Under the pieces are notes generated by a model. It was not told the DNA's origin. It worked only from the letters and a program-made list of their open reading frames with translations, and made no database searches. The position numbers and the translations under genes are program-made. A stretch of 32,000 nt of DNA. Source: Candidatus Saccharimonadota bacterium. GTDB taxonomy: Bacteria > Patescibacteriota > Gracilibacteria > BD1-5 > UBA6164. Below, piece by piece: positions 1-32,000 of the stretch. The DNA is taken from the NCBI GenBank assembly GCA_963677765.1, contig OY782392.1, positions 30,001 through 62,000 on the forward strand, given 5' to 3'. Within the stretch, counting starts at the first letter, position 1; each line of letters starts with the position of its first letter.

Positions 1-1309
1 CATATCCTCATCCATGAGCTGATTCAACTTCTTCTGCCTTATCAGAATCGAATTTATATTCAAAATCTGTAAAAGTAGTCGTAGCCTTATGAACTCAATG
101 ATTTAAATTAGTTTTAAAAATCTTTTCAATTTTAGCAGTTGTTATTCATGATGGTGAAACTATTTCAATATCATCTCAAACATTAAATCTATTTTTAACC
201 TCTACTCTTACAAGTTTATTTACTTCATCATAATCTCTTAAAATTCAAAGAAACGATTTAGTACCAAAACTACCATTTCTTTCATAGAATTGAGCATTAG
301 CATTAGGATTTCATGCTAGAAAACCTGGTATATATCATCTATTTGCTATTGCAAATAGTTCTTGTGATAATTTTTTAGAATCATATTTTTCTCATCTTTC
401 AACTGCATCAACTGCTTCTCTATAAGCTAATCAAACAGAAGCTAAATAATTAACTGTTTTATTTCTTCATTCTACCTTGAAACTTATTATTCAAGCATCA
501 GCTAAATCATCAATATAATCAATAGCACATAAATCTCTAGAATTCATCAAATATGTACCATATTGATCTTCATCTATCTCCATTATATCTCCAGGTCTAT
601 CTTTTTCCTCTAAATAAAAATTACCAGTTAATTCATCATAATCTTCTGGTCTACCAGTAACTTCTTCTAATTCTGCTTCAGTTCTTTCATCTTTGAAAAC
701 TTTAAATTCCCATCTACATGAATGACTACATGTACCTTGATTAGGATCTCTATTTGATAAATAATTTGAAATTAGACATCTTCAACTATATGCCATACAA
801 ATAGCTCAATGTACAAATGCTTCTAATTCCATTTCTGGAACTTGTTCATGAATTTCTTTCATTTCTCTTAATGAAATTTCTCTTGAAAGTATTATTCTTT
901 TTATACCCAATTTATGCCAAAATTTTGCTTGAGCCCAGTTCGTATTATTAGCTTGTACTGAAAGATGAACTTCAACATCTGGAAATTCAGTTCTAACTAT
1001 ATCAATAAGTCATGGGTCCGACATAATAAATGCATCTGGTCACATGTCTACCATTTTTTTAAATTGAGCCATAAAAGGTTTGATTTTCATATTATGAGCA
1101 TATATATTTGCTGTGAAATATATTTTTTTTCATAAATTATGAGCATAATCTACAGCTTCTTTTAGAGTATCCATAGTAAAAGCATTTGTTCTAGCTCTAA
1201 GAGAAAACATAGGAGCTCCAACATAACATGCGTCAGCTCAATAAGCATATGCAAATTTTAATTTTTCCATATCTCATGCTGGCATTAGTAATTCCAATTT
1301 TTTTGACAT
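1..1309 (-). CDS. Peptidase U32 family protein (collagenase-like/YhbU-type); C-terminus runs off the window
   Basis: ATG is the reverse complement of 1307-1309. The table-25 translation starts MSKKLELLMPAGDMEKLKFAYAYGADACYVGAPMFSLRAR and includes AICMAYSGRCLISNYLSNRDPNQGTCSHSCRW and ISFKVEGRNK, which are typical U32 motifs. It contains many in-frame TGA codons and no TAA/TAG through position 2. Confidence 0.8.
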
Positions 1310-1474
1310 ACTAAAAATATTAATAAATAAAACTAGTTCCTGACTAGCCCTTTTTAGTTTTTCTAAAAAGCTATATCATATTATGAAAAAATAAAAAAAA
1401 TCAAGTTTTTGATATAATATAGTTTTTATGTTATAATATATAAATAAGTAAATAATATAAATAATTTATAATAA

Positions 1475-2689
1475 ATGGGTAATTTTGAAAATAATAATTT
1501 TTGATTTAAAGAAAGTGAATTAAAAAATAATAACTTCAATCCAGAATTAGAAGCTTTTTTAAAAGATAATATTTTAGCAAAAGAAGAAGCTGATATACTA
1601 AATGATATGTTTGAAGAAAATAAAGCATGAATAATACTTGTATCTAAACAAAATCTAAGAAAATTAAGAGAATCAATATGAAGTAACAGTAAAGTTAACT
1701 ATATTAGTTCAAGTGATAAAAATATAATAAACAATATATCTCAAACAGAAAATACAAACTCAAATAAAGATACAGAGCCAAGTTATAATCTGGAACCTAA
1801 AAACAATCATATAGATTCAGAATGATATTTAACAAATGTAACAAAAATAAGATTAGATGAAATAGTTTGACCATCTGAAATGATAAAATTTTCAATAAAA
1901 TTATCTCAAAACAGTTTATATAATAACAATATGGATTGAAATACTTATAATGTTATATGGTGAAAAGATAAAATTTCAGGAAAACAAACTTATATTTTTC
2001 AAGAATGACCTAAAATAGGAGAAAGGGTAATGATAAGTAATGGCGATAAATTATGAGAATATATAGAAACACAAAATAATAATTTAGCACCTGAAACATC
2101 TCAAAGACCAATTCAAAGACCTGAAATTTTAACAAAAGATAATGAAGAATTAAATCAAGATAATCAAGAATTTATAGAGTGATTAGATTTAAATAATCAT
2201 TATAAAGAAATAGCTAAAGAATTTATATCAAAATTAAATTCAAATGAAATATTAACAAAAAATACACCGATAGCCCTAGTAAGTCATCAAAAAAAAGAAA
2301 TGGCATATATAATAAATTGAGAAACTATAATAGTTCCTGTATTATTATGAAAAAACTGAGTTACTAATTGATGATATATACCTAATGATAGAAAAACACC
2401 TATATGAAAAATCCATAGATTTGATCCGGATTTATCAATATTAGCAAATAGCCCTGATTGAGATGCAAGTAATTCTCAAAAATCAAAAACAGTAAAATCT
2501 GCATCTTTACAATCTGAATTATCTATTCAGTATTGATGAAGATATTTCCATTGAGTAGCACAATATAGAATAGACTGAAGAAATAATTGAATGTGAACAT
2601 GGTGATGTGTATGAGTTGATGTTAATACGATAAGAAAAATGTACCAAGATATACAAAGAAATGGTAAATGATATTGATATGTTTCTTAA
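1475..2689 (+). CDS. Hypothetical protein with C-terminal L,D-transpeptidase (YkuD)-like domain
   Basis: Open from ATG 1475 to TAA 2687-2689 with TGA read as Gly. The C-terminus reads TPIGKIHRF...YFHGVAQYRIDGRNNGMGTWGCVGVDVNTIRKMY, resembling the YkuD TPxGxF and His/(S/T)xGC(I/V) catalytic motifs. The N-terminal two thirds are Asn/Lys-rich with no recognisable domain. Confidence 0.5.
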
Positions 2690-2696
2690 ATAAAGT

Positions 2697-2720
2697 CCTA
2701 CTTAAATTGTAGGTCTTTTT
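2697..2720 (+). terminator. Weak intrinsic terminator
   Basis: cctac-ttaaatt-gtagg hairpin followed by tcttttt, a few nt after the stop at 2689. Confidence 0.4.
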
Positions 2721-2746
2721 ACTTGCAAATATTTTTTTTTAGATAT

Positions 2747-2760
2747 AATACGCGCGTATT
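2747..2760. promoter_or_regulatory. 14-bp perfect GC-cored palindrome aatacgcgcgtatt in the ndk promoter/leader
   Basis: Self-complementary and overlaps a tataat-like -10 (2744-2749) downstream of ttgcaa (2723-2728). I noticed no other CGCGCG run while tracking CG dinucleotides across the window. Confidence 0.3.
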
Positions 2761-2783: not shown

Positions 2784-3230
2784 ATGGAAACTACATTAAT
2801 ATTATTAAAACCAGATACAGTTGAAAGAGGTTTAATCGGTGAAGTTATTTCTAGATTAGAAAACAAAGGTTTAAAAATCTCAGGTTTAAAAATGATGCAA
2901 TTAGATGATGCTATAGTTAATGAACACTATGATTTCTTAGCTGATAAACCATTTTTTCCAAATATCGTTAAATATATGCAAAGAACTCCTGTAGTTGCTA
3001 TTGCTGCTACTGGTGCTAATGCTATTGCTACAGTTAGAAACTTAACTGGTGCTACTAATCCAGCTGAAGCTCTACCTGGATCTATAAGAGGTGATTTTGG
3101 TTTAACAATAGATGCTAACATAATTCATGCTTCTGATTCTGCTGAAACTGCTGAAAAAGAATTAAATAGATTTTTCAAAGGACAAGACGTATTTAACTAT
3201 ACTAGAGTTATTGACGAAGTTATTTCATAA
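2784..3230 (+). CDS. ndk: Nucleoside diphosphate kinase
   Basis: Intact even under the standard code. METTLILLKPDTVERGLIGEVISRLE...NIIHASDS matches the NDK fold and catalytic His motif (NxxHxSDS). Contains no TGA codon. Confidence 0.95.
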   Translation: METTLILLKPDTVERGLIGEVISRLENKGLKISGLKMMQLDDAIVNEHYDFLADKPFFPNIVKYMQRTPVVAIAATGANAIATVRNLTGATNPAEALPGSIRGDFGLTIDANIIHASDSAETAEKELNRFFKGQDVFNYTRVIDEVIS

Positions 3231-3309: not shown

Positions 3310-4770
3310 ATGGCTAAGTTTTATGATACTTTAATTTGAGAATATATTAAGAAACCTTGAAATAGAAACCTATCTCTTGATAAATTAGCTCAAAATGATT
3401 TAAATTATGAAATGATATCGTATAATGATATAACAAATAAATGAAAAAACAATTTTAAAGATGTAGATTTAATTACAGCATCTAAATATTCATGAGAAGA
3501 CGTTATAATAACAAACAAAATATATAAAAAACACCTAGAATTAAATTTAAATAATGAAAAAATAATAAATGAAATAGAACTACCTCTAATGGAGGTTTTA
3601 GTTAATATGGAAATTGACTGAGTAAAGGTAGATAAAAATAAATTATTTGATATTTGAGAATTACTAAAAAAAGAAATTAAAAGATTAGAAGAAGAAATCT
3701 TTATAATATCTGATGAAGAATTTAATATTAATTCTCCAAAACAAGTATGAGAAATTTTATTCAATAAGTTAGCTCTACCGAAAGGAAAAAAAACTAAAAC
3801 TTGATATAGTGTTAATGCAGAAGTTTTATGAGAATTATCGCATGAATTTGAAATAGCTCAAATGATTGTTGATTACAGACATTATTCAAAACTTTTATCT
3901 ACTTATATAGAATGATTATCAAAATTATTAGATTCAAATTGACTATTACATACTAGTTATAACCAAACAGTAACAACAACAGGTAGATTATCTAGTACAA
4001 ATCCAAATCTTCAAAATATACCATCATCTCATTGAATAGCATGAGAAATAAGATCTGCTTTTATATCTAGATTTGAATGATGAAAAATAATAGCAATAGA
4101 TTATTCTCAAGTAGAAGTTAGAATATTAGCTATATTATCAAAAGACGAAAATCTTTTAAATTCATTTAAAAATAATGAAGATATTCATCATAAAACAGCA
4201 GAGTTTATTTTTCCTTGAAAAACAATAACATCCAACGAAAGAAAAATAGCAAAAGCAGTTAACTTTTGAGTAATATACTGAATTAGTTGATTTTGATTAT
4301 CAAAAATGATAGGGAAATCTCTAAAAGAATCTAAAGAATATATAGATAAATTTTTTGAATCGTATCCAAAAGTGAGAAGTTTTCTAGACAATACAATTAA
4401 AAAATGTGAGGAAACATGATATGTAGAAACGATTTTTGGCAGAAAAAGATATATAGCATGAATAAATGATTCTAATAAAATGATAAAATCATGAGCTGAA
4501 AGAGAGGCTATAAATATGCCTATTCAGTGAACAAGTGCAGATATTATTAAAATAGCCATGATAAAAGTATCGAATTACTTAAAAGAAAAAAATCTGAAAA
4601 CAAAAATGATAATGCAGGTTCACGATGAATTAGTTTTTGATACATATCCATGAGAAGAGGATATTATTAAAAATGATGTTATGAATATAATGGAAAATAT
4701 AATAACTAACGAAGATATAAAATTAAAAACAGATATATGAATTGGTAATAACTGGAGAAAAACTATTTAA
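3310..4770 (+). CDS. polA: DNA polymerase I, polymerase (family A) domain only; lacks 5'-nuclease and most of the 3'-5' exonuclease domain
   Basis: 486 codons. Motif A is DYSQVEVRILA, motif B is RKIAKAVNFGVIYGIS (both Gly are TGA) and motif C is QVHDELVF. The N-terminus MAKFYDTLIGEYIKKPG...YSGEDV aligns to the region around the Exo III motif of Klenow fragment. The gene is preceded by the ndk terminator and ends at TAA 4768-4770. Confidence 0.85.
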
Positions 4771-4786
4771 TACTTAAATAAATAAA

Positions 4787-5014
4787 ATGGAATTCTTTTT
4801 TAAAATATTTTATGGAATAATTTTTATAATATTTTGATTATCTATATTGAAATATAGAAAACTAGTACATTCATGGACATGAAACTTTGTATGGGCAGAA
4901 CAATATATATGAAGAGGTTGAACTTATTTTGTATTAGTACTAATATGATTAGGTTTTGTGTTTTTTTGAGCAATTTATCCATTTTGAGGTTTAGAGTTAT
5001 TAACTTCAAAATAA
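4787..5014 (+). CDS. Small hydrophobic (2-TM) hypothetical protein
   Basis: 75 codons. MEFFFKIFYGIIFIIFGLSILKYRK...GGTYFVLVLIGLGFVFFGAIYPFGG gives two hydrophobic segments. There is no homology basis. Confidence 0.4.
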
Positions 5015-8217: not shown

Positions 8218-11200
8218 ATGAATAAAAATATATTTGAGCAAGAGTATAAAAAATTAAATGAAGCACAAAAAGATGCAGTTGATAATATTTATTGACCACT
8301 TATGGTTGTAGCATGACCAGGTACAGGTAAAACACAAATTATTGCACTTAGAACAGCTAATATTATAGATAAATCATGAGCTGATGCTAGTAATATACTA
8401 ATAACAACATTTACAGAAGCATGAGTTATAGCTATCAGAAAAAGATTAGTTAAATTTCTATGACAAGATTGATACAAAGTAAAAGTTTCTACTTTTCATG
8501 CATTTGCATCAGAGGTAATTTCAGATTTTCCAGAAAAATTTTTAGAACAAAGAGCAAAACAAACAATTGATGATATTGAATCTTATGAAATACTAAGTGA
8601 AATATTAGATAAAAAAATTGAATCATGAGAAATAAAAGATTTATTCAATAGTATGGATAAATATGCTTTTTTAAGAGATATAAAAGATAGAATATGAAAA
8701 CTGAAAACAGAATGAATATCTCCAAAATGATTTGATATAATAATAAAAAAACAAGAAAATGAATATAATGAAAGATTGCTAGATTTGGAAAACAACAAAA
8801 GAATAAGAGATTTAGAAAAAAGAAGAAAAAAAGACAAAGATTGATATGATAAACATATAAATAAATTAAAAGAATTAAATCTTATATATAAGGATTATTC
8901 AAAAATAATAAAAGAAAAATGATTTTATGATTTTGCTGACATGATTAATTTTGTAACAGAAAAATTCAAAAATGATGAAGAAATATTAGCTTATTATGCT
9001 GAAAAATTTCAATTCATGATGATTGATGAATTTCAAGATACAAATAACTCTCAAAATCAAATAATAAATTTAATGCTTGATTATTTTCCAGAAGAGCAAA
9101 ATATAATGGTTGTTTGAGATGATGATCAATCTATATATCGTTTTCAATGAGCAAATATAGAAAATATGCTTGATTTCACTAATAGGTATCCTAATACAAA
9201 ACATATAGTATTAGATAAAAATTATAGATCTAGTCAGGATATATTAGATATATCTCAAGAATTAATAGAAAATAATTCACAAAGAATATCGAATAAAATT
9301 GAATGAATAAATAAAAATCTAACTGCTGAATGAAAATACAGAGAATACAAAGAAAATAATCTTTATATTCTTGAAAATGATCTAAAAGAGAAAGAATTTG
9401 TATATAGGGAAATAAAAAAGAAAAACTTAGATGAAGAAACATTTGCCATAATAGTAAAAACAAATAGACAAGTTGAAGAATGGTCATTGTTTTTAAAACA
9501 AAAATGACTGAAAGTAAATTCAAAAAACTCATCTAATATTTTAAATAATCATTATTGCAATTTTTTACTTAATTTTATAAAATTTGTAAATAATCCATAT
9601 TTTGATGATAATATATTACTTGATTTAATAAGAAGTGACTTAATTGATATAGAAAATATAGATGCTATTTACATGTCTAGAAGCTTATATCAAAAAAATT
9701 ATAGTAGAAACAAATATAAACTATGACTATGGGATATAATAAAAGATATAGAAAATGATGAATATGCAGAATTAAAGGATTTAGAAAAGATAGTTAGATT
9801 TAAAGATCTAGTAATAGATTTAAATTCAAGCCTATGAAATTGATGATCTACTAAATTAATAAGAGATATATTAGAAAAATTAGAAATATTAAGTCATGTT
9901 GAAAAAAATGGTAGTTTTGATGACTTACAAGATATTTTTACACTAGTAAATAAAATAAAATGATATATTGAAAACAATAAAGAGATAAGTCTTTCAAATA
10001 TTTCTAATAAATTTGATTTATATAAAAAGTTTAATGTATCAATAGCCAGGGAAAGCATAAAATCTATTAATTCAAATATAGAAATATTAACTGCTCACGC
10101 TTCAAAATGACTTGAATATGATCATGTATTTATACCAGAAGTTTATGAATGAAATTGGAATAGAAAGGCTTTGCCAGATAAATTAAAACTTCCTATTTGA
10201 ATAAGTTGAGATGGCCTTCAATATTCAAATCTTGATGAAAAAGAATACAAAAATCTAGAAAAAGAGATTTCATTAGAAGAAGAAAGAAGACTATTTTTTG
10301 TTGCAATAACAAGAGCTAAAAAATCATTAACCTTTACAGTAGCTTGAACAAAGGAAAACAAAATTTTAATAAAATCTAGCTTTATGGAATCAATAGATTT
10401 AGAAGCTAATGAAATGGATTTAGATATAAATGAGGATGAGTTAAAAAAGATATTAATATCATCAATGACTAATAATAATGAATTAGTAAAAACAAATGAA
10501 GATGAGATTAATTTTATAGCAAAATTCTTAGAAGATTATAAATTATCTCCAACAGATCTAAATAAGTTTTTAGAAAGCCCTAAAACTTTTTTAAGAGAAG
10601 TTATTTTTAGATATCCTTTTTTATCAAATGAAAATTTAGTATTTTGAAGTGTTTATCATAAAATATTAGAAAATACTTATATATCAAAAGAAAAAAATAA
10701 TATCTTAAGTAAAGATGAAATTATAAATTTATTTAAAGAAGAAGTAAATAAATATGATTTATCAAAAGATGAATATGAAAGACTGTTAGAAAGATGAATA
10801 AATTGATTAAATTGATATTATGAAATAATATTAAACAATAAAAGATCTACATTAGAAAATGAGTATAATTTTAGATCTAAAAATGTTATATTTAATTGAA
10901 TTCCTTTAACTTGAAAAGTAGATAAAATAGAATTAATAAATGACAACAACATAGCACTTATAGATTACAAAACAGGTTCTATAAAAACAATATGAGTTAT
11001 CAAATGAATAGATAGATATTGAAACAAAAAAGAAAGCTGATGAAATTACTTAAGACAATTACTATTCTATAAATTAATGTTTGATAATACATCAGAATTA
11101 AATAAGAAATACAATTTAATAGAACTTTGATTAGATTTTGTTGAATGAAAAAAAGGTGAATATAAATATGTAAATGTTGATTATAACGAAGATGAATATA

Positions 11201-11277
11201 ACTATTTCTTGAATGAATTAAAAGAATCATGGGAAAAAATAAATGATTTAGAATTCTGGAAAAATGAATTAAAATAA
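8218..11277 (+). CDS. UvrD/PcrA/AddA-family superfamily-1 DNA helicase with C-terminal PD-(D/E)xK (RecB-type) nuclease domain
   Basis: 1019 codons. Motifs are Walker A VVAGPGTGKT (first Gly is TGA 8314-8316), MIDEFQDTN, VVGDDDQSIYRFQGA, KNYRSS, TAHASKGLEYDHVFI and RRLFFVAITRAKK. The C-terminal GKVDKIEL...IALIDYKTG is a RecB-nuclease motif. Confidence 0.85.
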
Positions 11278-12231: not shown

Positions 12232-12981
12232 ATGATACAAATTATAAAAAATCTATTAGCAGAAATAACTATAAACAAAAAAAATAAAAATAAATTAAAA
12301 GAAATTATAAATAAGTATAGAATTTTAATTCAAGCTAAAAATTCAAGATATAAAAAAATTGCAGAAAGTTATTTAAATGATATAGAAGAGGATATAAACA
12401 ATAACATAGAAATAAATATAGATAGTAGTAGTAATGATGAATATTTAGAAAATTATTTTATATCAAAAAGACAAGCTGAAATATATAATAGGTTAATAGA
12501 CAAGGATATATACTTAGAATTAATAAGTTTATTAAAAGAAAAAAAATTAAATAAATCTAAAATAAATGAAAAAAACAAAAAGTTAATAGAGAATTTTAAC
12601 AAATACTATAAACTATTATCAGCTAATAAAATTGCAAAAAATTTACTTATTTTTAATACCATTAAAAAAGAAAATAACTATGAATACTATTATAGATTAG
12701 GTGCTTTATACAATAATTACCAAATGCATGAAGAAATAAAAACAATAAATCAAATTATAAATAAAATAAATATATTAAATTCAAATGTTTATAATTATTG
12801 AATACAAAATCTAAAAAATAATTCTTTTAATTATAAGTATTTACACTTTAAGAAGACATGAGAAAACTATGAAATATGAGATATGGTTATAGATTCAAGC
12901 ATTGTTAATTACAGGACATGATTAGCAAAATTTGAATATAAAATAGCATTAAAAAAAATAAAAAAGATAGATTATAATTAA
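12232..12981 (+). CDS. Hypothetical Lys/Asn-rich (coiled-coil-like) protein
   Basis: The ORF-track entry 12232-12801 stops at a TGA. Read as Gly, the frame continues to TAA 12979-12981 (249 codons). Confidence 0.5.
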
Positions 12982-12990
12982 TCTATCTTT
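12963..12990. terminator. Bidirectional intrinsic terminator shared by convergent genes
   Basis: 12-bp stem aaagatagatta/taatctatcttt with a 4-nt loop, an A-run on one side and a T-run on the other. Both convergent stop codons (12979-12981 plus strand, 12978-12980 minus strand) lie inside it. Confidence 0.6.
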
Positions 12991-13529: not shown

Positions 13530-13547
13530 ATTATATTATTTTATTAA

Positions 13548-14612: not shown

Positions 14613-16489
<1,877 letters not shown>

Positions 16490-16916: not shown

Positions 16917-16918
16917 AA

Positions 16919-18941: not shown

Positions 18942-18977
18942 AAAGAGCTTAAAACGCAAAATTTTAAGTTTTACTTA

Positions 18978-19008
18978 AATAATGGCTATATATAGCCATT
19001 ATTTTTTT
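18978..19008 (+). terminator. Intrinsic terminator (murD side)
   Basis: Palindrome aataatggctata|tatagccattatt followed by a T7 run. Confidence 0.7.
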
Positions 19009-19166
19009 ATCTAATAATAGTTTATTAATAATTAAGCTGAATAAATATATAAATACAAATTAATCAAAGCTATATAAATAAAAATAAATATTATTAAATA
19101 ACAAATAATAATAAAAATTAATAAAAAATAATAAATGAAATCACTTCTTCAAAAATACATTATATT

Positions 19167-19194
19167 AATACACATAAGTTACATTATGTTAACT
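19167..19194. other. Candidate dif-like Xer recombination site
   Basis: aatacacataa-gttaca-ttatgttaact compared with E. coli dif GGTGCGCATAA-TGTATA-TTATGTTAAAT. The right arm matches 10/11 and the left arm 7/11 (CATAA core), with a 6-bp spacer. It lies in the 377-bp non-coding gap between convergent murD and pilT. Confidence 0.35.
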
Positions 19195-19240
19195 ATCTTA
19201 TATTAATATATTTAATACTCTATTTATAGATAACAAATAA

Positions 19241-19271
19241 AAAAACAATTTCATTTAATGAAATTGTTTTT
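19241..19271. terminator. Bidirectional intrinsic terminator (pilT side)
   Basis: 14-bp stem aaaaacaatttcat/atgaaattgttttt with a 3-nt loop, an A-run upstream and a T-run downstream. Confidence 0.7.
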
Positions 19272-19280
19272 TTATGTTTT

Positions 19281-20279
19281 TTAATCAATTAATCATTTCT
19301 CTCTAAGTTCTTCTAAATTTGATTCCATTGTATACATTCAGTCTGCCTTACCTGTTTCAATAGCTCAATCAATTTGATGTAAAGCTCATTTTCTAATCAT
19401 ATTTTTTATACTAGTATTGTTAACTAATAATTCTGATGCTAACACTCTTGATTTTCATTTTTTTGTTTTAACAAGATCTTGCCATATTATTCATATTAAT
19501 GAATCTGCAAGTTGAGATCTTATATGATCTTTTTCATCTCATGGAAACATATCTATAATTCTTGCTATAGTTCTAGCTGCTCAAGATGTATGCAATGTAG
19601 CAATTACAAGATTTCATGTTTCAGCAGCCCTAAGTGCTAATCTAAAAGTTTCTAAATCTCTCATTTCTCAAATCATTATAACATCACTAGCTTGTCTTAA
19701 CGCGTATTTTAAACCATTTTCAAAGCTTTTTGTATTAAGTCCTACTTCCCTTTGCTCAATTAATGATTTATTACTATTAAATATATATTCTATAGGATCT
19801 TCTACAGTAACGATATGCTTTGACATATTATTATTTATAATTTCTAGCATTGTTGACATTGTAGTAGATTTTCATGATCATACAGAACCAGTAACAAGAA
19901 TTAGTCAATTTTTCTTTTTTACAAATTTAACTAATTGTTTTGGAAGCATTAAGTCATCAAAGCTTGGAAGTTCTTTTTTTATAGGTCTAAAAACTACACC
20001 AACTCAATTTCTAGTATAAAAAACATTTACCCTAAATCTTGTATATCATTTTAAATCAATAGAAAAATCTAATTCTAAATTATCCCTAAGCATACTTCTC
20101 TGTTTTTCATTCATTATAGAAAAAAGTTCTCAAGATAAAGTATTATGAGAAAATTCTTCATATTCATCTAAATAAACTATATCTCAATATATTTTTAATG
20201 ATGGTTTAGATCAAGAACTAATTATTATATCAGAAGCATCTCTTTCTAATGCAACTTTTAGTATATCGCTTAATAACAT
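19281..20279 (-). CDS. pilT: Type IV pilus retraction ATPase PilT
   Basis: 332 aa. DASDIIISSGSKPSLKIYG is followed by Walker A LILVTGSVGSGKSTT, where two Gly are TGA. Further motifs are VEDPIEYIF, ALRQASDVIMIGEMRDLETF and TGNLVIATLHTS. The ORF track recovers only a 63-aa internal piece. Confidence 0.9.
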
Positions 20280-20359
20280 TAATAAAAAATTAAAAATAAA
20301 TTTAACTTATAATAACATATATATATAATTAAATCAAAATAATCAATTAATAATAAAAA

Positions 20360-20752
20360 ATGATTAATAATAAAAAATGATTTACAATATTAGAAATAAT
20401 AGTAGCTACTTCTATATTAACAATTTCTGTATTTTGAGTATATAAATTAATATCTGAAAATAATAAAATTATTAATAATTCAAATATATATTTAAATACA
20501 ACGATGTTAATTCCAAGCATTGAAAATTGTATAAAAAATATTGAACCTAGTTTATGAGTAAAACATTATTTTGATTTTTGAACTAATTATGAAGAATGTA
20601 ATATTTTAAATAATGAAGTAATAAATACTATAGATAATATAGAATACGTAATATCTGCTGAATGAACTAATACACCAATATGAAAAAGATGGGAAATTAT
20701 TATATATTCTGATAATACATGAAAAGTAGAATCAATTTTTTTACAAAAATAA
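20360..20752 (+). CDS. Type IV pilin/pseudopilin with class III (prepilin) signal peptide
   Basis: MINNKKG|FTILEIIVATSILTISVFGVY is a canonical G-1/F+1/E+5 prepilin peptidase site plus a hydrophobic helix. The G-1 codon is TGA at 20378-20380. It is divergent from pilT. Confidence 0.75.
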
Positions 20753-20782
20753 AAATAGTGAAGCTGCAACCCTTCCCTATTT

Positions 20783-20932
20783 TTATATAATTTGAACTAA
20801 TTCTTCTTTTTCAGATGAAGTCATATATCATAAATACTTCATAAAACTTATTTTTTCAGAATCAGTCATAACATTTGATGAAGATATTTTATCTAATACC
20901 CCTTCATCTAATTTAAATTTTTTGTTTTGCAT
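20783..20932 (-). CDS. Small hypothetical ORF (49 aa)
   Basis: MQNKKFKLDEGVLDKISSSNVMTDSEKISFMKYLGYMTSSEKEELVQII. It fills an otherwise empty gap but has no homology basis. Confidence 0.25.
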
Positions 20933-21056
20933 ATCTTAAATCTTATATAATTAATATTATTTTGTGAAAGTGATTTAAGAATACATATATATTATTCCAT
21001 ATATTTACAATATTGTCAAAAAATACTTTACTTTTTATTAAAATTATTTATAAAAT

Positions 21057-21545
21057 ATGATTATACTATGAATTGACCCGTGAACAACAACTGTATGATT
21101 TGCGATAATTGAGAAAAATTGATGAAATATTAAACTTTTAGATTATTGAATTTTTAAAACAACACCTAAAATACCAATTGAGGATAAATTATTAGAAATA
21201 TGAAATGATATAGTACATATAATAAAAACTAATAAACCTGATTTAATAGTTATAGAAAAGATTTATTTTCAATCAAATATTAAAACAGCAATTGATGTAT
21301 CTCAAGCTAGATGAGTAATTATATATGAATCAATAAAAAATAATGTAAAAATAATTGAATACACCCCTCTTCAAGTTAAAAAAGCTATAACATGAAACTG
21401 AAAAGCAAATAAACTACAATTACAAAATGCCATAAAAATATTATTCTGAATGGAAAAAATACCTAAGCCTGATGATGCTGCTGATGCAATATGAATGGCT
21501 TATATGTGAGCATTAAATAGTAATTTAATTAATAATTGACTATAA
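21057..21545 (+). CDS. ruvC: Crossover junction endodeoxyribonuclease RuvC
   Basis: MIILGIDPGTTTVGFAIIE...PDLIVIEKIYFQSNIKTAIDVSQARGVI...EYTPLQVKKAITGNGKANK...PDDAADAIGMA. By my count all 14 glycines are TGA and there is no in-frame GGN. Confidence 0.9.
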
Positions 21546-21593
21546 AATATTAAATATGATATAATATATAAAATGTAATTAAATATATATTAT

Positions 21594-23207
21594 ATGGAAT
21601 TTATAAAAAAATATTTTGAAGAAGAACTGCATCCTGAAGAAAAAATTAGTGATGCTGTTTTTTTGTGAGAAATAAATGATAAATCAAAACTTTTTTTAGA
21701 AGAAAAATTACTTAACCTAAAAAATGATTGATTACTCGAGGATTATGAAAAAGAATACATAAATAAACAAATAGACTACCATATAAAATTTAATAATACT
21801 GTAGATGAATTTGAAAATAATAAAAATTATATTAGTAGTAAATCAAAAAATGAAATAAAAAAATTAATAGATGAGATGAACTCCCAAAGCTTATCTATAA
21901 ATGAAATTAATTTTTTAAAAGAAAAAATTAATACATCTAAAGAATTATTAGAAGATAGATTTTTTTGAAAAAATATAAGAAGTTTAGTAGAAGAAAGTAT
22001 AGATGTTTCATGAGAGTTGGAATCAGTAATATCAAATGATAAAATAGATAAGTTTTATGAATTATTTAGTTTATATTATATTAATTTATTAGAATCAAAT
22101 TATAATAAAGAAGAGATTAGTAATATAATTAAAAATTGATGAAAAGAACTTCTAATATGAGAAACTTTATCAGAAAAATTAATACAAAAAATAATAGTAG
22201 AAAATTATAATTCCATGAAAAATTTTAGCTATAAAATTGCTTTAAATTTATCATGATGAAAAATAAAAGTCATTAATGTATGAAATACAATAAAATCATT
22301 AGAAAAAGCTAGTAGTAAAATATATAAAATTGAATTGCTGGAAAAATTTATAACTTGAGATAATAGCAAAACTGTAGAGATTAATAAACTTCTATGATTA
22401 GATATTGATAATAATGAAGAATTATTAAAAGTATATTGTGAATACTTAATTGAATCCAGGATTGTTTCAAAATCTAAGTTATTAAGTATATTTGAAGAAA
22501 ATCAAAATAACTTTAATTATCTAGATTTTTTAAATAATTATGGATTTACAGAAGAATCAGAAAATACATACAAAGATATGATACAAAGAGAATTATTATG
22601 AACAAGAATATGATGACAAAATATAACATTAGATCAAAAGTATATAAACTCAAATTATAGAGCTATAATAAATAATTTCGAAGTGTTTACAAAAATAATA
22701 CTTGAAGTTGAATCATCTTGAAAAAATGCATCAAATAATTCATGAAGTTCAGCTAGATGATATTTTCAATATATGACTTGAAATAATTGAAATAATTGAA
22801 GGGCTCAAGGAAAGTTTAGCTCATTAGAGACTGCACTAAGAAGATATTATATAGAATATAGCTGAAAAACAAATATTCCAAACAATAATTTAGAGCATCA
22901 TGAATTAGTACCAAACTGGATAGTAGATTTCTATAATAGTAATAATTTAGATACAAGAGATTTAACGGCACAACAACAAAATGATTTATTCATAATTGAT
23001 TTATTTAATAATAACAGAACAATCAAAAACTCTGCATGAAATAGAGTTTGAATAAATGATTTTTTATGACTTATAGCTATTTGAAATGTCTGGTGAATAA
23101 AAAATGCTTATAAGATTTTTCATCATACAAGTACAGATAGTCTTACAGATCAAGTATTAAATAGAGTAGTTAATAAATATCAAAAAGAATTAGTCAAATT
23201 AGACTAA
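21594..23207 (+). CDS. Hypothetical protein with C-terminal lytic-transglycosylase (SLT)-like motif
   Basis: 537 codons. The C-terminal LEVESSGKNASNNSGSSARGYFQYMTGN resembles the SLT catalytic E-S ... S-x-A-x-G-x-x-Q signature. I did not recognise the N-terminal ~400 aa. Confidence 0.55.
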
Positions 23208-23269: not shown

Positions 23270-26200
23270 ATGAAAAAAATATTATCATTTTTATTATTAA
23301 TATTTTTCACATTTAATATATTAAATATAAATATATCAAATGTGAGTGCTGATGAATGGAATAAAGAAATGGCTGAACACTTAGCTAATAAAACATTATA
23401 TTATGTAGATCAAGAAATAATAAACCAATTATACAATGCATGAAGTAAAGAAAATGCAATTGATATATTATTTCCTTCAAAACAATGACAAAATAGAGAT
23501 GATTATAATAATCAGTTAAATAATATATTAAATGATGAGGATTTCAGTATAACAAACTGAAATGATATGAAAAAATATTATATTGCAAAAAGATACCTAG
23601 ATCCTTATCAAGCTAAATCAAAATTTTTTAATATAATTGAAGATACTTTTTCTGTAAGCACTTCATCATCAAAAGATATAACATATATAGACATAGAAAA
23701 TACTCATGACATGTTATATGATTTGAGTTTTTCTTCATATAAAGATATTATAAAAAGAAATCTATATAATAATGGGGATCAATGAGATTATTCATTGTCT
23801 AAATTTTTAGACCTATTAAATCAATCAAATCCAAAATACCCAAATGAAAATTACTGAAGAGAATTATTACAATTATTCTTAATGCTGGAATATATACCTA
23901 CTGAATCAGAAGATAATTGAGACAAAAGAAATTATAGTGAAGAAGATGTGAATGCAATATCAAAAATATTATTTTGATTTAAGAGTGACGAAAATACTCA
24001 TGAAATTATATATGATAATAATGCTAATACTAACACTACAGTAACTTTTTTAGATTGAGATTTAAAACAATGAGATAGTTTCCCATTTTATAATGAATCG
24101 ACTTGAGAAATAGATATTCAAGAATTGAAAAATCCTATAAACTGAAATAATTGATTAGCTGATAATATAGTTGATTATATTTTTTCAAAAAGAGAATATG
24201 AAATAAGTATGTTTCTAGCTGATAAAATATACAGATTTTATATAGCTGAAAATCCAGAAAAACAAGAACTAGAGCAATTATCAAATATAATAATAAATAA
24301 TAACTTTGATTTATATTACTCTTTAAAAGAAATATTAAAATTAGATTTATTATATAGTGAAAAGTCTTTAAATAGTATAATATATAAAAATCCTTTAGAT
24401 TTAACTATATCAACTAACAAATTATTTTGAATAAATGCTGAAAATATAAGAATATATAACTTAATTAATTTATGATGGGAACCATATTGAATAAGTAGTA
24501 TATTTGGTAGAGATTGATTTGATAAAAATGAAGCATTTTTTACAGCATATACTCAAACTCAATGGGTATCTGAATCGAGTTATATAGTAAACGATATGGA
24601 TTTAGATTCATTTTTATGAGAAAATACTATAAGCTCTACTTGAGCTATTGTAGAATATACAGCTAATAATTTAATTGATACTCTTGAAAATAAAATATAT
24701 AATTGATCTAAATTAAAAAATTATACAAAAGAAAAATTATTAAACTTTTTATCAAAAGACAAAGACTGAAATGATATAGAGTTTCAATTTAACGATAATA
24801 ACTATAGGAATTATTATATAAAATGATTAATTCATTTAATGTTAATACAACCCGAATATTTATTAGCTAGTTGATATAATTTAGAAGAACAAAACAAAAA
24901 TAATGAAAATAATAATTTTATAAATAATGATTCTAAACTAGTGATAATTAAAGCCAATTGAGGATTTGATTATCTAAGTTGAGTTATTCCAAAAGACGAA
25001 TACTCTACATATTTAGAATACAGATGATCATGAGCATTAGTTTGAAATGAAATAATTAGTTTAAACGAAGATTATTATATAAATTCGGCATTAGCACCTT
25101 TTAAAGAACTATTTGATTCATGAGATCTAAAAATAATAAATAGAGTATGAACTCCAGAACATTCTAGATGACATGATACTGCATCTCAAAAAATCACTTC
25201 ATTAAACAATACATATGATATTGAAGACTATTGAATAGTATGAAACTTTATAAAAAATGAAGACTATTCTAAAACAATAGTATTATGATGATATAAACCT
25301 TTGATATTTAGATGATGAAACTATCTAAATATCTGAAGTAATGCATATTTTTACATAAGAGATAATACCAATAATGATTTCAGAGATTATAAAAAACAAT
25401 ATATAAGTGATTTATTAAACTCTAGAGAATACCCTTCTAGTTCATGAGATGTTTTCAAAAATGCAGTTACAATTAATAATGTAGCAATTGATTCGTACAA
25501 TAATTGATGAAGAGCTGGTTCATGATACAATATGGAAGATAATTTTACATTTTTAGAATCTATATTTGATTCAAATATATCTAATATAGCTAGAATGTGA
25601 GCTGACTGAGGTTATGATACTCATTGAAATCAAAAAAACACAATTGAGAATAACTTAACAAGAGTAGCTCAAAGAACATATGATTATTATAATAGAGTAA
25701 AAGATAAACAAGATGTTACAATAGTTATTTTTTCTGAATTTTGAAGAACTAATAAAATAAATTCATCTAATTGAACTGATCACTGACAATGAGGTTGAAT
25801 GTTTATAATATCAAATAATAAAAATGTTAAAAATGAATTAAAAGAAAAAATTTATTGAAATTTATCTTTTATAAACTCGAAAGACAACTGGTTATGAGTA
25901 TGAATAGACTATAGAGCTGTTTATTCAAGCCTGATGAATTTATTATACAATCAAGATATATCATCTGATTTAAAATGAGTATTTAAAATACAAGATTACA
26001 TAGACAATGCATGACCAAAAGTAGAATTATTAAGAAGAGAATTTGAAAATATAAATAATTCGAGCTCAAGAATTAACTTTGTTTTTGATATAAATGATAC
26101 TAACTTCAAAACAAAAGAAGCATCATATTTAAAAATAAATTATTGAACTGATCCTGATAATATGTATGAGGAATCTCAGTGGAGAATAAGTAGATATATG

Positions 26201-27832
26201 GGAATTAGTGATGATAAAATAAATGTTTATCTTAATAATATAAATTCAAAATTAAAATATTATTACAAAATAACACTTTATGATAATCAATATAATGAAA
26301 CTATATTAGAATGAAGTTTTATATCTCCAGAAGTAATAAGAGATTCTAGTGAATTATCTATTCAGTCTGATACAAGATTAACTAAATATAATAATACTAG
26401 TATTAATTGAAGCTTAGTACTTGAAGATCCTATTTTATTATGAAGTAATGATTCTATATCAAATATAGAATGAGAAAATGATATAAAAATGTTAACTTCA
26501 ACTTGAACATATATTAATTCCCTAACTAGTTCTAGTACTGGAGTAGTATGGAATTGAGGTTTTGTTTTACCAAAAGAAATAAATAAAGTTTATTTCCTTA
26601 AGGATTGAACAAAGATATGAAACAATGATATTTCTAATATAAATATAGAAAAATTAATTAAGGTATGAGCTGATAAGCTTTGAGTTTGAATGAGTTTAAA
26701 TAAAGATGTGGAAATACAAGTTCCTATAAATCAAAATAAAAACTATGTTGTATATTCTAGTGAAAACTGAATAAATTGGCAAAAACATAATTCAAATAAT
26801 GTAGTAAAAAATAACTGATTATTAAGTATAAAAACTAATCATTTTAGTTACTATGCATTAATTGAGGCTGATTCAAATTGAAATATAATAGATAACTCTA
26901 TCTTAGAAGAAAACTCAGATGAAGTAGAAAATACAAGTAAAAAATTTAGTTCATGATGAAGATCAGTAATCCTAAGAAAAGATAGTTGTGAATTCTGAGA
27001 TTTCTCTCCATCGTATTATGATAGAGATTGTTGAATAGATCCAGAAAAAGAATTAGCAACTATGAGTTATACTGATAGTATGCAATACCAAACAATAGAT
27101 AAAAAAGAAGAATCAAGAATTCAAATAGAAAAAGAAAACCTTGATAAAGATTTATCAAAAGATATTGAAGAAGAATTAATAAATGAAGAAAAAAATAACT
27201 CTGAAACTATTAAAATATGAGATAAATATTTTGAATATGAAGATAAATGAGATTATATATTATTAAAGCTAGATAATGAAAAATATTATAATATTTATTT
27301 AAAAATTATTGATTTCATAATTAAGAAAAAATTTGATAACAATACTACAAATTCTTTAATAGAAAAATTAAATAATTTGATGTGAAATATAATCATATAT
27401 AAAACAAAAAATATAGATTTGGAAACAAAAAATAAATCTAAAATAGCTATAATAGAAAATGCTGATGCATTTAATAAAATATATAAAAAAGCTGTTCTTG
27501 ATAAAAAAATTAGGAATATTTATTATAAAAAAGAAATAAAAACAGAAGAAAGTAATAATGTAGTAGAAACAAAAGAAAATATAAATGATATGGTAGATAA
27601 TAATGATAAAATTAATCTAAGTTATTATCAATACTATGTAGAAAGTGATAGTGTTTTATTAATGAAAGATGCATATTGGAAAGAAAGTATATGATTTTTA
27701 GAAAAATGAGATATTGTTGAACAAACAACTCAATTACATGAGAAATGATTTTTTCAAATAAAAGTAATAAAATCTAAAAACTTAGAAAACTGAACTATAT
27801 GATATATTTTCAAAAAGCACTTAACTAAATAA
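23270..27832 (+). CDS. Giant secreted protein: DUF1800-like plus DUF1501-like (sulfatase-fold) fusion with a ~650-aa C-terminal extension
   Basis: 1520 codons with no TAA/TAG. Three ORF-track fragments (23567, 24209, 27419) are all in this frame. The signal peptide is MKKILSFLLLIFFTFNILNINISNVSA. The DUF1800-like region is SMFLADKIYRFYIAENPEK...LYYSLKEILK. The DUF1501 hallmarks are LVIIKANGGFDYLSGVIP and VTIVIFSEFGRTNKINSSNGTDHGQGGGMFII. Confidence 0.8.
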
Positions 27833-29424: not shown

Positions 29425-29427
29425 TAT

Positions 29428-29504
29428 AAGGACCTAGCTTAATTAGAAGAGTGCTCGGATTCCGACCCCGAGAGGCGTAGGTGCAATTCCTACGGTCCTT
29501 GCCA
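29428..29504 (+). tRNA. tRNA with anticodon CCG (nominally tRNA-Arg; identity ambiguous), genomically encoded CCA, non-canonical anticodon arm
   Basis: Manual cloverleaf: AAGGACC/GGTCCTT acceptor, TA, GCTT-AATTAGAA-GAGT D arm, G, CTCGG-ATTCCGACC-CCGAG anticodon arm, AGGC variable region, GTAGG-TGCAATT-CCTAC T arm, discriminator G, CCA. It is the only GC-rich island in the window. Confidence 0.8.
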
Positions 29505-29555: not shown

Positions 29556-29556
29556 A

Positions 29557-30363
29557 TTATTTAAGTAACTCTTTTACTTTAGCTGTTTTCATTAAATTAG
29601 CTAAATATTCAGAATCTTGTATAACTTCTCTATAATCAGGAGCTAGGCTAAGTAAATTATTAATCGCAGCTATAGCATTTTCTTTGTCATCAAGACAATT
29701 AAAAGCACAAGCTCTATTGTAAAGTGCATGTGGTTGATGTTTGGCTCTATCTCAAGAAACAATAGAGTCTGTTATTTCGATAACCTTATCATAAAGTCAC
29801 ATAGATAAATAAACATTTGACTTTTCAATAGTTACAAATTGAGATTCAGGTTTTAAATAATAAATTCTATCTAAAATATTTATCTTTTCTTTATCACTAT
29901 CAGAAGTATTGTATTGTCTCCATAAAATATTTATTTTTTGTTCTTTTTCTAGTTCTTCAATCTTTTTTTGGAATTGAGATATAATTTTTTTTGTTTCTCT
30001 ATCCATAGAAGCTTTAGTAGCATTTTTTATATCCCCAATTGTTTTCCATCAAACTATTCAAAATCATGCTATAACAACAGTAAGTAGAACAAAGAAAAAA
30101 TTAACAGTGTTAGCTGAGTATGATAAAGCTTTATCAATTGCTGAAATTTCTCTAGATTGAATATCTTGATATATTTCTCTTTTTAATGTCTCTTGATCAA
30201 TTCTTAATTCTTTTAATTCAGTTAATATAAACCTTTGAGTCCAATCTATTTCTTCTGGAACTAAAACTTCAGTATCAGAAGAATCAAATCCATTTATATC
30301 AGCTGAAAAACAAAAAGAAAAAGAAAGAAAAAAAGCAATCAAAACAAAAAGTATTTTTTTCAT
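29557..30363 (-). CDS. Membrane-anchored hypothetical protein (signal peptide, one TM, coiled-coil, TPR-like C-terminus)
   Basis: This joins two ORF-track fragments (30064-30363 and 29797-30006, same frame) through TGA codons. MKKILFVLIAFFLSFSFCFSA...NFFFVLLTVVIAGFGIVGW...ALYNRACAFNCLDDKENAIAAINNLLSLAPDY is TPR-like. Confidence 0.6.
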
Positions 30364-30376
30364 ATATTTTTAAAAT

Positions 30377-30961
30377 TTATTTAATATTAGTTTTATTATT
30401 AGAATGTCATGTATAATAATCAACTATAGGGTTGCAAAAATTATAAAATCAATCTAATAATTTATAGTTAGGTTCATTTGTATTTTCTAAATAATTTTTT
30501 TTGAATTCATCTGGTTTCTTATCAAGAATTCACATTATTAAATCATGATATTTTTTTGGAATTATATAACTATCATCAGACTCATAACAAACATCTTCAT
30601 TTTTTAATTTAATATAAGCTGTAAAATAACTATATCAATCTTGTTTTTGTTTTATATTATCTGTAACATCTATCATTTCATAAGCAAGTTCCCTTTTTGA
30701 AATCATTTCAAACTCTTCATCACTTACTACTAATCAGTAACCATTAACAAAACAGTTATTACATTTTTTTATATCTAGAAAAACACCATTATAACATGTT
30801 TTTTTATCCTCAAAAGTTATTTCAATCGTAGGAGTCCAAACTCTTTTATATCATTGTAATTCTAAATATATCATATCTTCTTCTGATATTTCTCTATTTA
30901 AAGTAGAGTTCCAACCAGATGCAGATAATAAAGATCAGTATCAAAATATTACTTTTTTCAT
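30377..30961 (-). CDS. Gamma-glutamylcyclotransferase-like (AIG2/ChaC-like) protein
   Basis: 194 aa. The N-terminal MKKVIFGYGSLLS matches the (V/I)FxYGSL motif of GGCT-fold enzymes. The rest is not diagnostic. Confidence 0.5.
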
Positions 30962-31165
30962 TATAAATTATTACTCAAAAAAATAAAACATAAAAACACT
31001 TATTAGTTTTTGATTTGAAACCATAAAACTATAAGTGTGTTGCTCAAAAATACAAGAACAATATATCTATTAAGAATAAAAAAACAAAAGTTTTTATAAA
31101 ATTTAAATTTTGTTTTTTTTATAATATATTTAAAATATAAATATTAAGATGTTATCTATCTAAAT

Positions 31166-32000
31166 ATGGAAGAAATAAAATTTAGAGATAAATTAGAAAG
31201 ACAAAGATTTGATAATTTATACAATGAGAAATGACATCTTTTGACAAAAGACTTAGAACTATTAATAAAAAATGTTATAGTTATTTTTAAGAGGCATTCA
31301 AATGATGAGTCATACTTAACATTAGCACTAATATATTGAATGCTATACTTTTGAATTATAGATAAAAACCATAATATTATAAAAAAATCAGATTCAGAAA
31401 AAATAAAACTTATTAAATTAAGTTTTAAATATGAAATGGAATGAGATTATAAAAAATTTTTGGATGTAGTATTAGAAATGGAAAAAGATTTATTTCTTTT
31501 CAAAACTGTTATTAAATATTCTATTTTGTCTTTTGAAAAGAAATTTATAAAAATAGCTTCAAATCAAGAAAATTATTATAAATCAATATGATATGTATTA
31601 CCATACCTTACATATATTGAATCACCTTTCCTTGGTTTTTTCCAAGATATATATTTTAAGAAGGTTTATCCTAAAAAATATGAAAAAATAAGAAAATTCT
31701 ATAGAGAAAGAGTTGATAGAATAGAATTTCCTTGAGAGCATATGTTTACAATGGTAAATAATCTTACAAATATAATGATGCAATCAGAATCATTTTGAAA
31801 TATTAAAGTAAGAAGAAAAACATATTTTAGTATATATAATAAACGTATAAGAAAAAAAGGTAATACAAGTATGGATAATATAGGTATAAGAGTAATTTTT
31901 CCTGATAAAGAAAATTTAGAAAAATTTGTTAAATTATTTGAAGAAAAATATGTTTTTATAGAAAAAAAAGACTATATAGAAAAACCTAAAGAAAACTGAT
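31166..32000 (+). CDS. RelA/SpoT-domain protein ((p)ppGpp synthetase-like); 3' end beyond the window
   Basis: The frame is open from ATG 31166 to the window end. KVRRKTYFSIYNKRIRKKGNTSMDNIGIRVIF matches the RxKxxxSIxxK...D(x)xGxRxI synthetase motif. The preceding ~210 aa have no clear HD hydrolase motif. Confidence 0.55.

Follow-up and report, generated by a model that had tools for sequence, protein, structure and literature searches.

UGA as the main glycine codon, and probable reading of CGG as tryptophan, in chromosomal DNA of an AT-rich Gracilibacteria/BD1-5 member

In the stretch of DNA analysed here, a segment of 32,000 nucleotides referred to below as the window, UGA is almost certainly a sense codon for glycine, with UAA and UAG as the sole stops, and the DNA is best read as chromosomal DNA of a Gracilibacteria/BD1-5 member that employs the SR1/Gracilibacteria code (NCBI table 25). 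This assignment corresponds to the published code 25 and is not a new finding. Table 25 is probably incomplete for the window, however, in that CGG appears to specify tryptophan and not arginine, a change that has also been predicted earlier for some low-GC BD1-5 genomes (PMC8629427). The preliminary description of this DNA, which had assigned it to table 25, was thus right with regard to UGA, but the label of table 25 probably falls short of the full code.

Reading frames, stop codons and lineage

The window has a GC content of 21.8%, and 26 long ORFs span 91.8% of it when only TAA and TAG are taken as stops, the longest frame measuring 1526 aa; under table 11, 16 frames stay open for 100 aa or more, cover 19% of the window and reach 198 aa at most. 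Within the 26 ORFs, 485 in-frame TGA triplets stand against 22 TAA and 2 TAG, while the two off-frames contain 702 and 713 TAA and 419 and 212 TAG, so that the in-frame excess of TGA over TAA and TAG cannot be due to chance. In-frame TGA is carried by 25 of the 26 ORFs, and Pfam matches run end to end only when it is read through. UAA and UAG are still stops: the ORFs have 24 ends (22 TAA, 2 TAG), or 25 if the small ORF at 4778-5014 is added. The earlier claim that genes end in TAA or TAG and never in TGA therefore stands, but its count of 27 ends (25 TAA, 2 TAG) could not be reproduced, and one TAA, at 14076-14078, splits thyA internally instead of ending a gene, being the sole internal TAA or TAG in the ORFs of the window.

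Judged from sequence, the source is a very AT-rich member of Gracilibacteria/BD1-5, in GTDB class JAEDAM01. The best homologues of its ThyA (82-87% identity) and NDK (approximately 80%) are named Candidatus Gracilibacteria, as fits the suggestion that this is the code reported for Absconditabacteria (SR1) and Gracilibacteria; they include the closed genome CP042461.1, whose gene order is shared by the window. Code 25 was proposed for this very clade and has found confirmation there by proteomics (PMC4032931).

A reading by the standard code, in which the window would consist of decayed pseudogenes, a poor assembly or a stop-recoded phage, would account for the fact that table 11 yields fragments only and that thyA holds one real in-frame stop, but it deserves virtually no credence. 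It is refuted by the nature of the interruptions, which are nearly all TGA (485, versus one internal TAA), and by Pfam matches of full length. Pseudogenes are also at odds with dN/dS values of 0.04-0.16 against the closest relative, which indicate purifying selection, and a phage origin with the presence of cellular housekeeping genes (those for FtsH, MurD, PolA, RuvC, ThyA and DHFR) that are collinear with Gracilibacteria chromosomes.

Glycine at UGA

All of the TGA sites that had initially been quoted from conserved motifs are present. They are located in ftsH (14613-16490, + strand; 37 TGA) at 15330 (AVA-g-E), 15390, 15396 and 15960 (the HEV-g-HA zinc motif); in the gene for a UvrD/AddA-type helicase-nuclease (8218-11277, +; 40 TGA) at 8314, within Walker A (A-g-PGTGKT); in that for a DNA polymerase A polymerase domain (3310-4770, +; 26 TGA) at 4267 and 4279, within motif B (NF-g-VIY-g); in the pilT-type T2SSE ATPase gene (19281-20279, -; 18 TGA) at 19872-19880, within Walker A (V-g-S-g-KSTT); in the murD-like Mur ligase gene (17518-18903, +; 33 TGA) at 17839 and 17857 (g-VTATK-g-KST); in ruvC (21057-21545, +), where all 14 glycine codons are TGA, at 21069 and 21081 (IL-g-IDP-g); and in thyA, encoding thymidylate synthase (13548-14474, -; 308 codons, as in relatives; 14 TGA), within PVY-g-HQWR. 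Further TGA-bearing genes include folA (dihydrofolate reductase; 12978-13529, -; 8 TGA) and those for a DUF1800-DUF1501 protein of 1520 aa (23270-27832, +; 81 TGA) and for a Peptidase U32/TrhP-like protein (2-1309, -; 18 TGA; Pfam PF01136, 282.5 bits; 42% identity to E. coli TrhP), the 3' end of which lies beyond the window. The only ORF without TGA is ndk (nucleoside diphosphate kinase; 2784-3230, +; none of its 10 glycine codons), which is therefore read correctly under table 11; the statement that almost no genes would be seen under that table holds in general, with ndk as the intact exception.

When translations were compared by Pfam score, glycine ranked above X, and X above tryptophan, in five of five proteins; for TGA read as G, X and W, respectively, the scores were 472, 443 and 432 bits for PolA, 362, 337 and 315 for ThyA, 214, 175 and 165 for the M41 domain of FtsH, 151, 123 and 113 for RuvC, and 150, 124 and 115 for PilT. 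Tabulation by column against E. coli K-12 homologues gave the same answer, since glycine occupies 95 of 172 TGA columns (background 7.3%; binomial P = 4e-61) and, conversely, the 235 E. coli glycine columns hold TGA at 95 sites and GGT at 28. The 45% of TGA columns with a residue other than glycine are expected, the homologues being only 22-44% identical; by comparison, AGA meets arginine in 58% of cases and GGN meets glycine in 76% (34/45). All well-sampled codons match their standard residue in this comparison. Six TGA columns of the window's ThyA hold glycine in 35 of 35 standard-code ThyA sequences, and in the thyA DNA of 44 relatives the TGA columns hold TGA 323 times, GGN 200 times and TGG never.

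These data bear on a Mycoplasma-type code (table 4), in which UGA would encode tryptophan. This is a low-GC genome with in-frame TGA, and many public protein records of the clade have been translated in this manner (in 120 public ThyA homologues, the cells of the glycine columns read W 868 times and G 621 times), but the reading is scarcely believable. It is refuted by the E. coli comparison, where only 2 of 172 TGA columns are tryptophan; a tryptophan translation scores below even X in each of the five Pfam tests, TGA has a glycine-like frequency, and relatives exchange TGA with GGN and never with TGG. The claim that UGA means glycine across the window is borne out, and so is the observation that conserved ThyA tryptophans are TGG, which is true of the window and of 43-44 of the 44 relatives.

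UGA is, moreover, the main glycine codon of the window. It accounts for 4.9% (485) of approximately 9,800 codons, with 100 GGN and 50 TGG (0.5%), and is thus about ten times as frequent as UGG; its share of glycine codons is 83% here and approximately 71% over related loci. AT-biased mutation pressure that favours UGA over GGN would fit this dominance. From literature on relatives, the decoder of UGA would be a tRNA-Gly whose anticodon is UCA; RF2 would be absent and RF1 alone would terminate at UAA and UAG. In BD1-5 genomes, prfB has not been detected in any case (PMC6851277). BD1-5 proteomics yielded 97 glycine-specific versus 3 tryptophan-specific peptides (PMC4032931). A tRNA-Gly(UCA) gene was not found in the 32-kb window, whose sole tRNA is a tRNA(CCG), nor was any tRNA with anticodon UCA found in approximately 70 related loci.

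An in-frame UAA in thyA

The TAA at 14076-14078 (-) lies in frame at the invariant glycine of 'EL-G-PVYG'. This column is glycine in 35 of 35 standard-code ThyA sequences, and relatives carry TGA (21) or GGN (22), none of the others having a stop there. A single G-to-A transition separates the TAA from the ancestral TGA. Every UGA glycine codon being one such transition away from UAA, the thyA TAA, unless it stems from an error in base calling, would be a hit of this kind, to which the code itself gives rise.

Tryptophan at CGG

The sole CGG of the window, among approximately 9,800 codons, is found at 14160-14162 (-), codon 105 of thyA, in a conserved tryptophan column within a lineage-specific ThyA insert; CGA is absent from the window. 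In 44 relatives this column holds TGG 41 times, CGG twice and TTT once, while standard-code outgroups display W (7), T (4) or I (1) and no R. Overall, CGG occurs here in four DNA sequences, and 'R' is written in 11 of 120 database proteins. In the DHFR column that carries CGG, found in five loci, the Pfam score of tryptophan exceeds that of arginine by 4.8-4.9 bits in three relatives. Across loci with a GC content of 0.28 or less, CGG aligns to TGG in five columns of five proteins and never to AGA or arginine, whereas in BD1-5 loci with a GC content of 0.31-0.38 its counterparts are AGA, CGA or R. The Codetta source data display the same division, with CGG given as tryptophan or '?' in low-GC BD1-5 and as arginine in high-GC BD1-5, although tryptophan was called in only two of the low-GC genomes (PMC8629427). 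Taken together, these comparisons make it rather likely that a very rare CGG is read as tryptophan in a second code change, with the tRNA(CCG) encoded at 29428-29504 as its likely decoder.

The alternative is that table 25 applies strictly, with CGG as arginine, the CGGs at tryptophan columns as tolerated Trp-to-Arg changes and the tRNA(CCG) as an odd tRNA-Arg. TGG and CGG differ by one transition, the window offers a single CGG, and for six of eight low-GC BD1-5 genomes the Codetta results give CGG as '?' (PMC8629427). This explanation is nevertheless unlikely, since in the low-GC clade several of the five TGG columns bear CGG in multiple species, outgroups with the standard code have W, F or Y at CGG columns and never R, and Pfam favours tryptophan by approximately 4.8 bits. 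The tRNA itself offers arguments for both sides.

The tRNA(CCG)

The tRNA(CCG) gene (29428-29504, +), which ARAGORN calls 'Arg', encodes its CCA end and has A1:U72 and G73 in the acceptor end. Its D loop, AAUUAGAA, lacks the G18 G19 pair; in the T loop (UGCAAUU) G55 replaces U55; and the anticodon arm has two extra nucleotides, which give either a 9-nt loop or a stem of 6 bp with A·C (or A:U) as its closing pair. An Rfam alignment places A at position 20 of this atypical D loop. By such straightforward alignment the tRNA carries the classical arginine identity set of A20, C35 and G36, to which G73, fitting both tryptophan and arginine, may be added, in favour of strict table 25. By sequence rules its identity would therefore be ambiguous, and not of tryptophan type.

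Orthologues were detected on 20 contigs of 19 assemblies in the GTDB species-representative genome collection, under titles naming Gracilibacteria, Patescibacteria, 'Peribacteria' or Ca. Altimarinus; their occurrence in Gracilibacteria and Patescibacteria MAGs accords with the lineage given above. Part of the T loop and of the anticodon loop was prescribed by the search pattern, and loop invariance among these 20 therefore proves nothing; six further orthologues, found independently of the pattern, share the same anticodon and T-loop features. Compensatory changes support 12 of the 22 cloverleaf pairs, a level reached by none of 500 shuffles. A1:U72, which may be atypical for tRNA-Arg, is invariant in 26 of 26 orthologues; G73 is likewise reported as invariant. 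The former is listed as a tryptophan identity element (PMC8629427), which argues against strict table 25. Arginine marks (A20, C35, G36) occur here together with tryptophan marks (A1:U72, G73), a combination that would point to capture of an arginine tRNA by TrpRS, or to charging that is ambiguous, and would speak against a duplicated tRNA-Trp as the origin of the tRNA(CCG). A doubly altered code, with glycine written mostly as UGA and with CGG read as tryptophan through a structurally aberrant tRNA(CCG) that is dedicated to it and bears mixed Arg/Trp marks, can be put forward tentatively, at somewhat less than even confidence.

Implications

Pipelines based on table 11 or table 4 mistranslate this DNA, and records mistranslated in this way would have errors at approximately 5% of their residues. 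In this lineage even a translation by table 25 probably shows arginine where the cell inserts tryptophan. The window illustrates a late stage of codon capture, in which the captured stop now dominates among the codons of its amino acid, as well as the cost of that capture, given that nearly 5% of codons lie one transition from UAA and thyA bears exactly such a change. No new question is opened by these observations, the code itself having been established since 2013-2014.

Comparison with known codes

Table 4, as used by Mycoplasma/Spiroplasma and insect symbionts, resembles the situation in the window in that a low-GC genome has taken over UGA as a sense codon; the amino acid differs, being tryptophan there and glycine here, where UGA is ten times as frequent as UGG. 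Closer similarity is found with table 25, which shares UGA as glycine, UAA and UAG as stops, low GC and Candidatus Gracilibacteria homologues. That code was reportedly described by Campbell and by Rinke in 2013. Proteomic support followed (Hanke 2014, PMC4032931). The window departs from table 25 in that UGA makes up most glycine codons (83%) and is not simply an additional one, a figure not met with in the literature consulted, and in that table 25 keeps CGG as arginine, where window and clade data argue otherwise.

The CGG change has its parallel in the Codetta predictions (Shulgina & Eddy 2021, PMC8629427, Fig. 4 source data) of CGA and CGG as tryptophan in Absconditabacteria, and of CGG as tryptophan in some low-GC BD1-5. 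The Absconditabacteria variant thus includes CGA, a codon that the window lacks. The tryptophan marks given for the tRNA(CCG) of the Codetta variant are G73, the absence of A20 and, as a supportive feature, A/G1:U72 (PMC8629427), a rule that the tRNA of the window does not pass cleanly because A20 seems to be present. The window shares with the CGG variant the extreme rarity of CGG, AGA as the arginine codon, CGG at tryptophan columns and the presence of a tRNA(CCG), while higher-GC BD1-5 keep CGG as arginine in the Codetta data, a split that the comparison of loci reproduces here.

Reading Frames and Stop Codons

The window has a GC content of 21.8%, and table 11 leaves 16 open frames of 100 aa or more, which cover 19% of its length, the longest being of 198 aa. 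When TAA and TAG are the sole stops, the longest frame extends to 1526 aa, and 26 ORFs tile 91.8% of the window. Within the frames of these ORFs, TGA occurs 485 times, TAA 22 times and TAG twice, against 702 and 713 TAA and 419 and 212 TAG in the two off-frames; these frames are thus closed to TAA and TAG but open to TGA. All sites at which the preliminary description had placed a TGA were checked, and each carries one within the motif reported. Its claim that genes end in TAA or TAG also stands (22 TAA and 2 TAG in frame), except that one of the TAA codons counted as a gene end interrupts thyA. A 75-aa ORF with 8 in-frame TGA codons lies at 4778-5014 (+), between polA and the gene of an S41 peptidase; its product is apparently a small membrane protein. 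The gene is probably genuine and could account for the 27th gene of the preliminary description.

The Amino Acid Encoded by UGA

Glycine is the amino acid of UGA, as had been proposed from the sequence, and four independent tests concur on this point: Pfam scoring, alignment to Escherichia coli proteins, ThyA sequences from standard-code organisms, and the thyA genes of relatives. Translation of TGA as G, X or W gave, respectively, 472.3, 442.7 and 432.0 bits for PolA, 362.4, 337.3 and 314.8 for ThyA, 214.2, 174.9 and 165.4 for the M41 domain of FtsH, 151.0, 123.2 and 113.1 for RuvC, and 149.6, 123.9 and 115.3 for PilT; glycine at TGA adds information, and tryptophan subtracts it. For the comparison with E. 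coli K-12, window proteins were written with X at every TGA and set against ten regions of the E. coli genome, and 9 homologue pairs were aligned, the MurD pair falling below the alignment threshold. Among the 172 TGA columns, E. coli has Gly in 95, Ala in 14, Gln in 9 and Trp in 2, the proportion of Gly being far above its background frequency of 7.3% (P = 4e-61). Viewed from the E. coli side, 235 Gly columns correspond to TGA in 95 cases and to GGT in 28, and TGG lies opposite Trp in 12 of 18 columns. Six of the TGA columns of the window's ThyA hold Gly in all 35 standard-code ThyA sequences (43-51% identical), and thyA DNA from 44 relatives displays TGA 323 times, GGN 200 times and TGG never at the window's TGA columns. 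Codon frequencies in the window (TGA 4.9%, GGN 1.0%, TGG 0.5%) point to Gly as well. The code in which UGA is Trp, denied by the preliminary description, is contradicted both by the scarcity of Trp in the E. coli columns and by the Pfam scores, which are lowest with W.

Gene Content

Once TGA is translated as Gly, Pfam matches run end-to-end across the window proteins, as seen for DNA_pol_A (profile positions 4-380 of 381), thymidylate synthase (1-266 of 266) and RuvC (1-145 of 148). The remaining matches include Peptidase_U32, NDK, CoA_binding_2, DHFR, Peptidase_S41 with PDZ, a transglutaminase core, a helicase-nuclease (UvrD/UvrD_C/PDDEXK), FtsH (AAA and M41), a VTT/DedA domain, a Mur ligase, a PilT-like T2SSE, a prepilin N-methyl motif, a DUF1800-DUF1501 fusion and a RelA_SpoT fragment. 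This content is cellular housekeeping, neither phage nor plasmid. The fusion of DUF1800 to DUF1501 is part of a 1520-aa protein (23270-27832, +) with a long C-terminal extension, for which six peptide patterns, searched against a collection of species-representative genomes, returned 29 matches and no confirmed relative.

A local gene replacement has occurred at 1316-2720, in the interval that separates ndk from the gene of the U32 peptidase. This interval harbors a 404-aa ORF (1475-2689, +) that has no match in Pfam and whose C-terminus, 'HGVAQYRIDGRNNGMGTWGCVGV', appears to be L,D-transpeptidase-like; relatives that are ~90% identical on both flanks carry the gene of a 361-aa rhodanese (UPF0176) in the same place.

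Uneven Use of UGA

UGA accounts for 83% of Gly codons in the window and for 71% over 32 related loci. The ndk gene (2784-3230, +) has no TGA among its 10 Gly codons, whereas the share of TGA in the other ORFs is 60-100%. Recent transfer of ndk from a standard-code donor was considered as the source of this deficit and rejected, because its best homologues are from Gracilibacteria and are as distant as those of ThyA, its GC3 (0.107) is unremarkable, and ndk is poor in TGA throughout the clade, with 'W' in ~9% of the cells of NDK Gly columns in public records as opposed to 58% for ThyA. The missing TGA thus looks like a codon-choice bias rather than gene transfer. In addition, E. coli has Gly opposite 34 of 45 GGN codons and opposite 95 of 172 TGA codons (Fisher P = 0.017), a hint that GGN is retained at the glycines under the strongest constraint. 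Both patterns would fit a UGA that is somewhat less favored at sensitive sites or in highly expressed genes.

A Thymidylate Synthase Gene Interrupted by TAA

Two adjacent ORFs in the same frame, 13548-14075 and 14076-14570, form a single 308-codon thyA (13548-14474, -) with an in-frame TAA at 14076-14078, in the context 'W-g-E-L-TAA-P-V-Y-g-H-Q-W-R'. In relatives this column holds TGA (21) or GGN (22), and Gly is present in 35/35 standard-code ThyA sequences; the TAA is one G-to-A change away from a UGA glycine codon. The possibility that thyA is an old pseudogene was rejected, given that comparison of the window with its closest relative gives thyA a dN/dS of 0.076, similar to that of neighboring genes (0.04-0.16) and indicative of purifying selection. 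The TAA is therefore recent, polymorphic, or a consensus or base-call error.

The contig of the closest relative (L088, ERZ1673962) is 84.6% identical to window positions 13036-21773, and its own thyA (L088:7313-8267) is disrupted after 'R-g-DTN' by a 29-nt insertion (ATATGTAAAAAGTTGATATAATAGATATT) that is independent of the window's TAA. This insertion may be an assembly artefact; as contig coverage is just 4.6x, no argument is built upon it.

CGG as a Likely Tryptophan Codon

CGN codons number only three in the window: CGT occurs twice and CGG once. The helicase motif 'DDDQSIY-R-FQGA' contains one of the CGT codons, at a position where E. coli UvrD has Gly; judging by motif III of UvrD/PcrA, Arg is presumably acceptable there. 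The sole CGG (14160-14162, -) is codon 105 of thyA, in a column that 41 of the 44 relatives fill with TGG, two with CGG and one with TTT, and where the standard-code ThyA sequences that align have W (7), T (4) or I (1), and never R.

The comparison was extended to ~70 BD1-5 loci, split by GC content. Where GC does not exceed 0.28, CGG is found opposite TGG at five separate columns (one each in ThyA, at codon 105, in DHFR, at 'GRKT-W-ESIP', in a 483-aa protein, in the C-terminus of the helicase and in a small ORF) and never opposite AGA, while in loci with GC of 0.31-0.38 its counterparts are AGA, CGA or R, among them the invariant Arg of 'LYQ-R-S' in ThyA. Replacement of R by W at CGG raises the DHFR Pfam score by 4.8-4.9 bits in three relatives. 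At the Trp column of ThyA, R is written for CGG in 11 of 120 public proteins.

The sole tRNA gene of the window (29428-29504, +) encodes tRNA(CCG), and not tRNA-Gly(UCA). Its orthologues, 20 identified by a pattern scan of species-representative genomes and 6 found independently beside thyA, are 77 nt long, and compensatory changes affect 12 of 22 stem pairs, a value reached by none of 500 shuffles; the gene is thus functional. Every copy has A1:U72, G73 and an encoded CCA. The G18 G19 pair is missing from the D loop, whose sequence is AAUUAGAA; the T loop reads UGCAAUU; and two additional nucleotides in the anticodon arm either enlarge its loop to 9 nt or extend its stem to 6 bp, with A·C (A:U in one subgroup) as the closing pair. 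Unlike this molecule, the clade's Ile, Pro, Gly(UCC) and Lys tRNAs have a canonical structure; these four were the only others detected in the ~70 related loci, with neither tRNA-Gly(UCA) nor tRNA-Trp(CCA) among them.

The identity marks of tRNA(CCG) are mixed, A1:U72 and G73 fitting Trp and A20 (by the Rfam alignment), C35 and G36 being of the Arg set. Since this is so, the proposal that CGG is translated as Trp in this low-GC BD1-5 lineage, which we consider likely, is based on codon columns rather than on the tRNA. The low- and high-GC pattern of the ~70 loci matches Codetta source data, in which low-GC BD1-5 genomes have UGA as Gly and CGG as Trp (two genomes) or '?' (six genomes), lack tRNA(UCG) and mostly possess tRNA(CCG), and high-GC BD1-5 genomes retain CGG as Arg (PMC8629427).

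Lineage and Relation to the Known Code

The source is a member of the BD1-5 lineage (GTDB class JAEDAM01). Searches with ThyA recovered 308-aa proteins with 82-87% identity named 'Candidatus Gracilibacteria bacterium', including one from the closed 1.34-Mb genome CP042461.1, and NDK gave the same outcome; metagenome contigs with 85-92% DNA identity are collinear with the window. In BD1-5, the assignment of UGA to Gly has been proposed and then confirmed by proteomics, with 97 Gly-specific and 3 Trp-specific peptides (PMC4032931), and this assignment has been linked to the absence of prfB (PMC6851277). The interpretation of the preliminary description is therefore supported, and the phenomenon was already known, being code 25 of BD1-5 Gracilibacteria. 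Most public proteins of the clade are translated with table 4: in 120 ThyA records (P0001-P0120), W fills 868 cells and G fills 621 at the columns where the window has TGA. Public records of this lineage are systematically mistranslated. Beside code 25, it is worth recording the likely use of CGG for Trp together with an unusual tRNA, the thyA with its internal stop, and the predominance of UGA among Gly codons, three features that are largely in line with published predictions.
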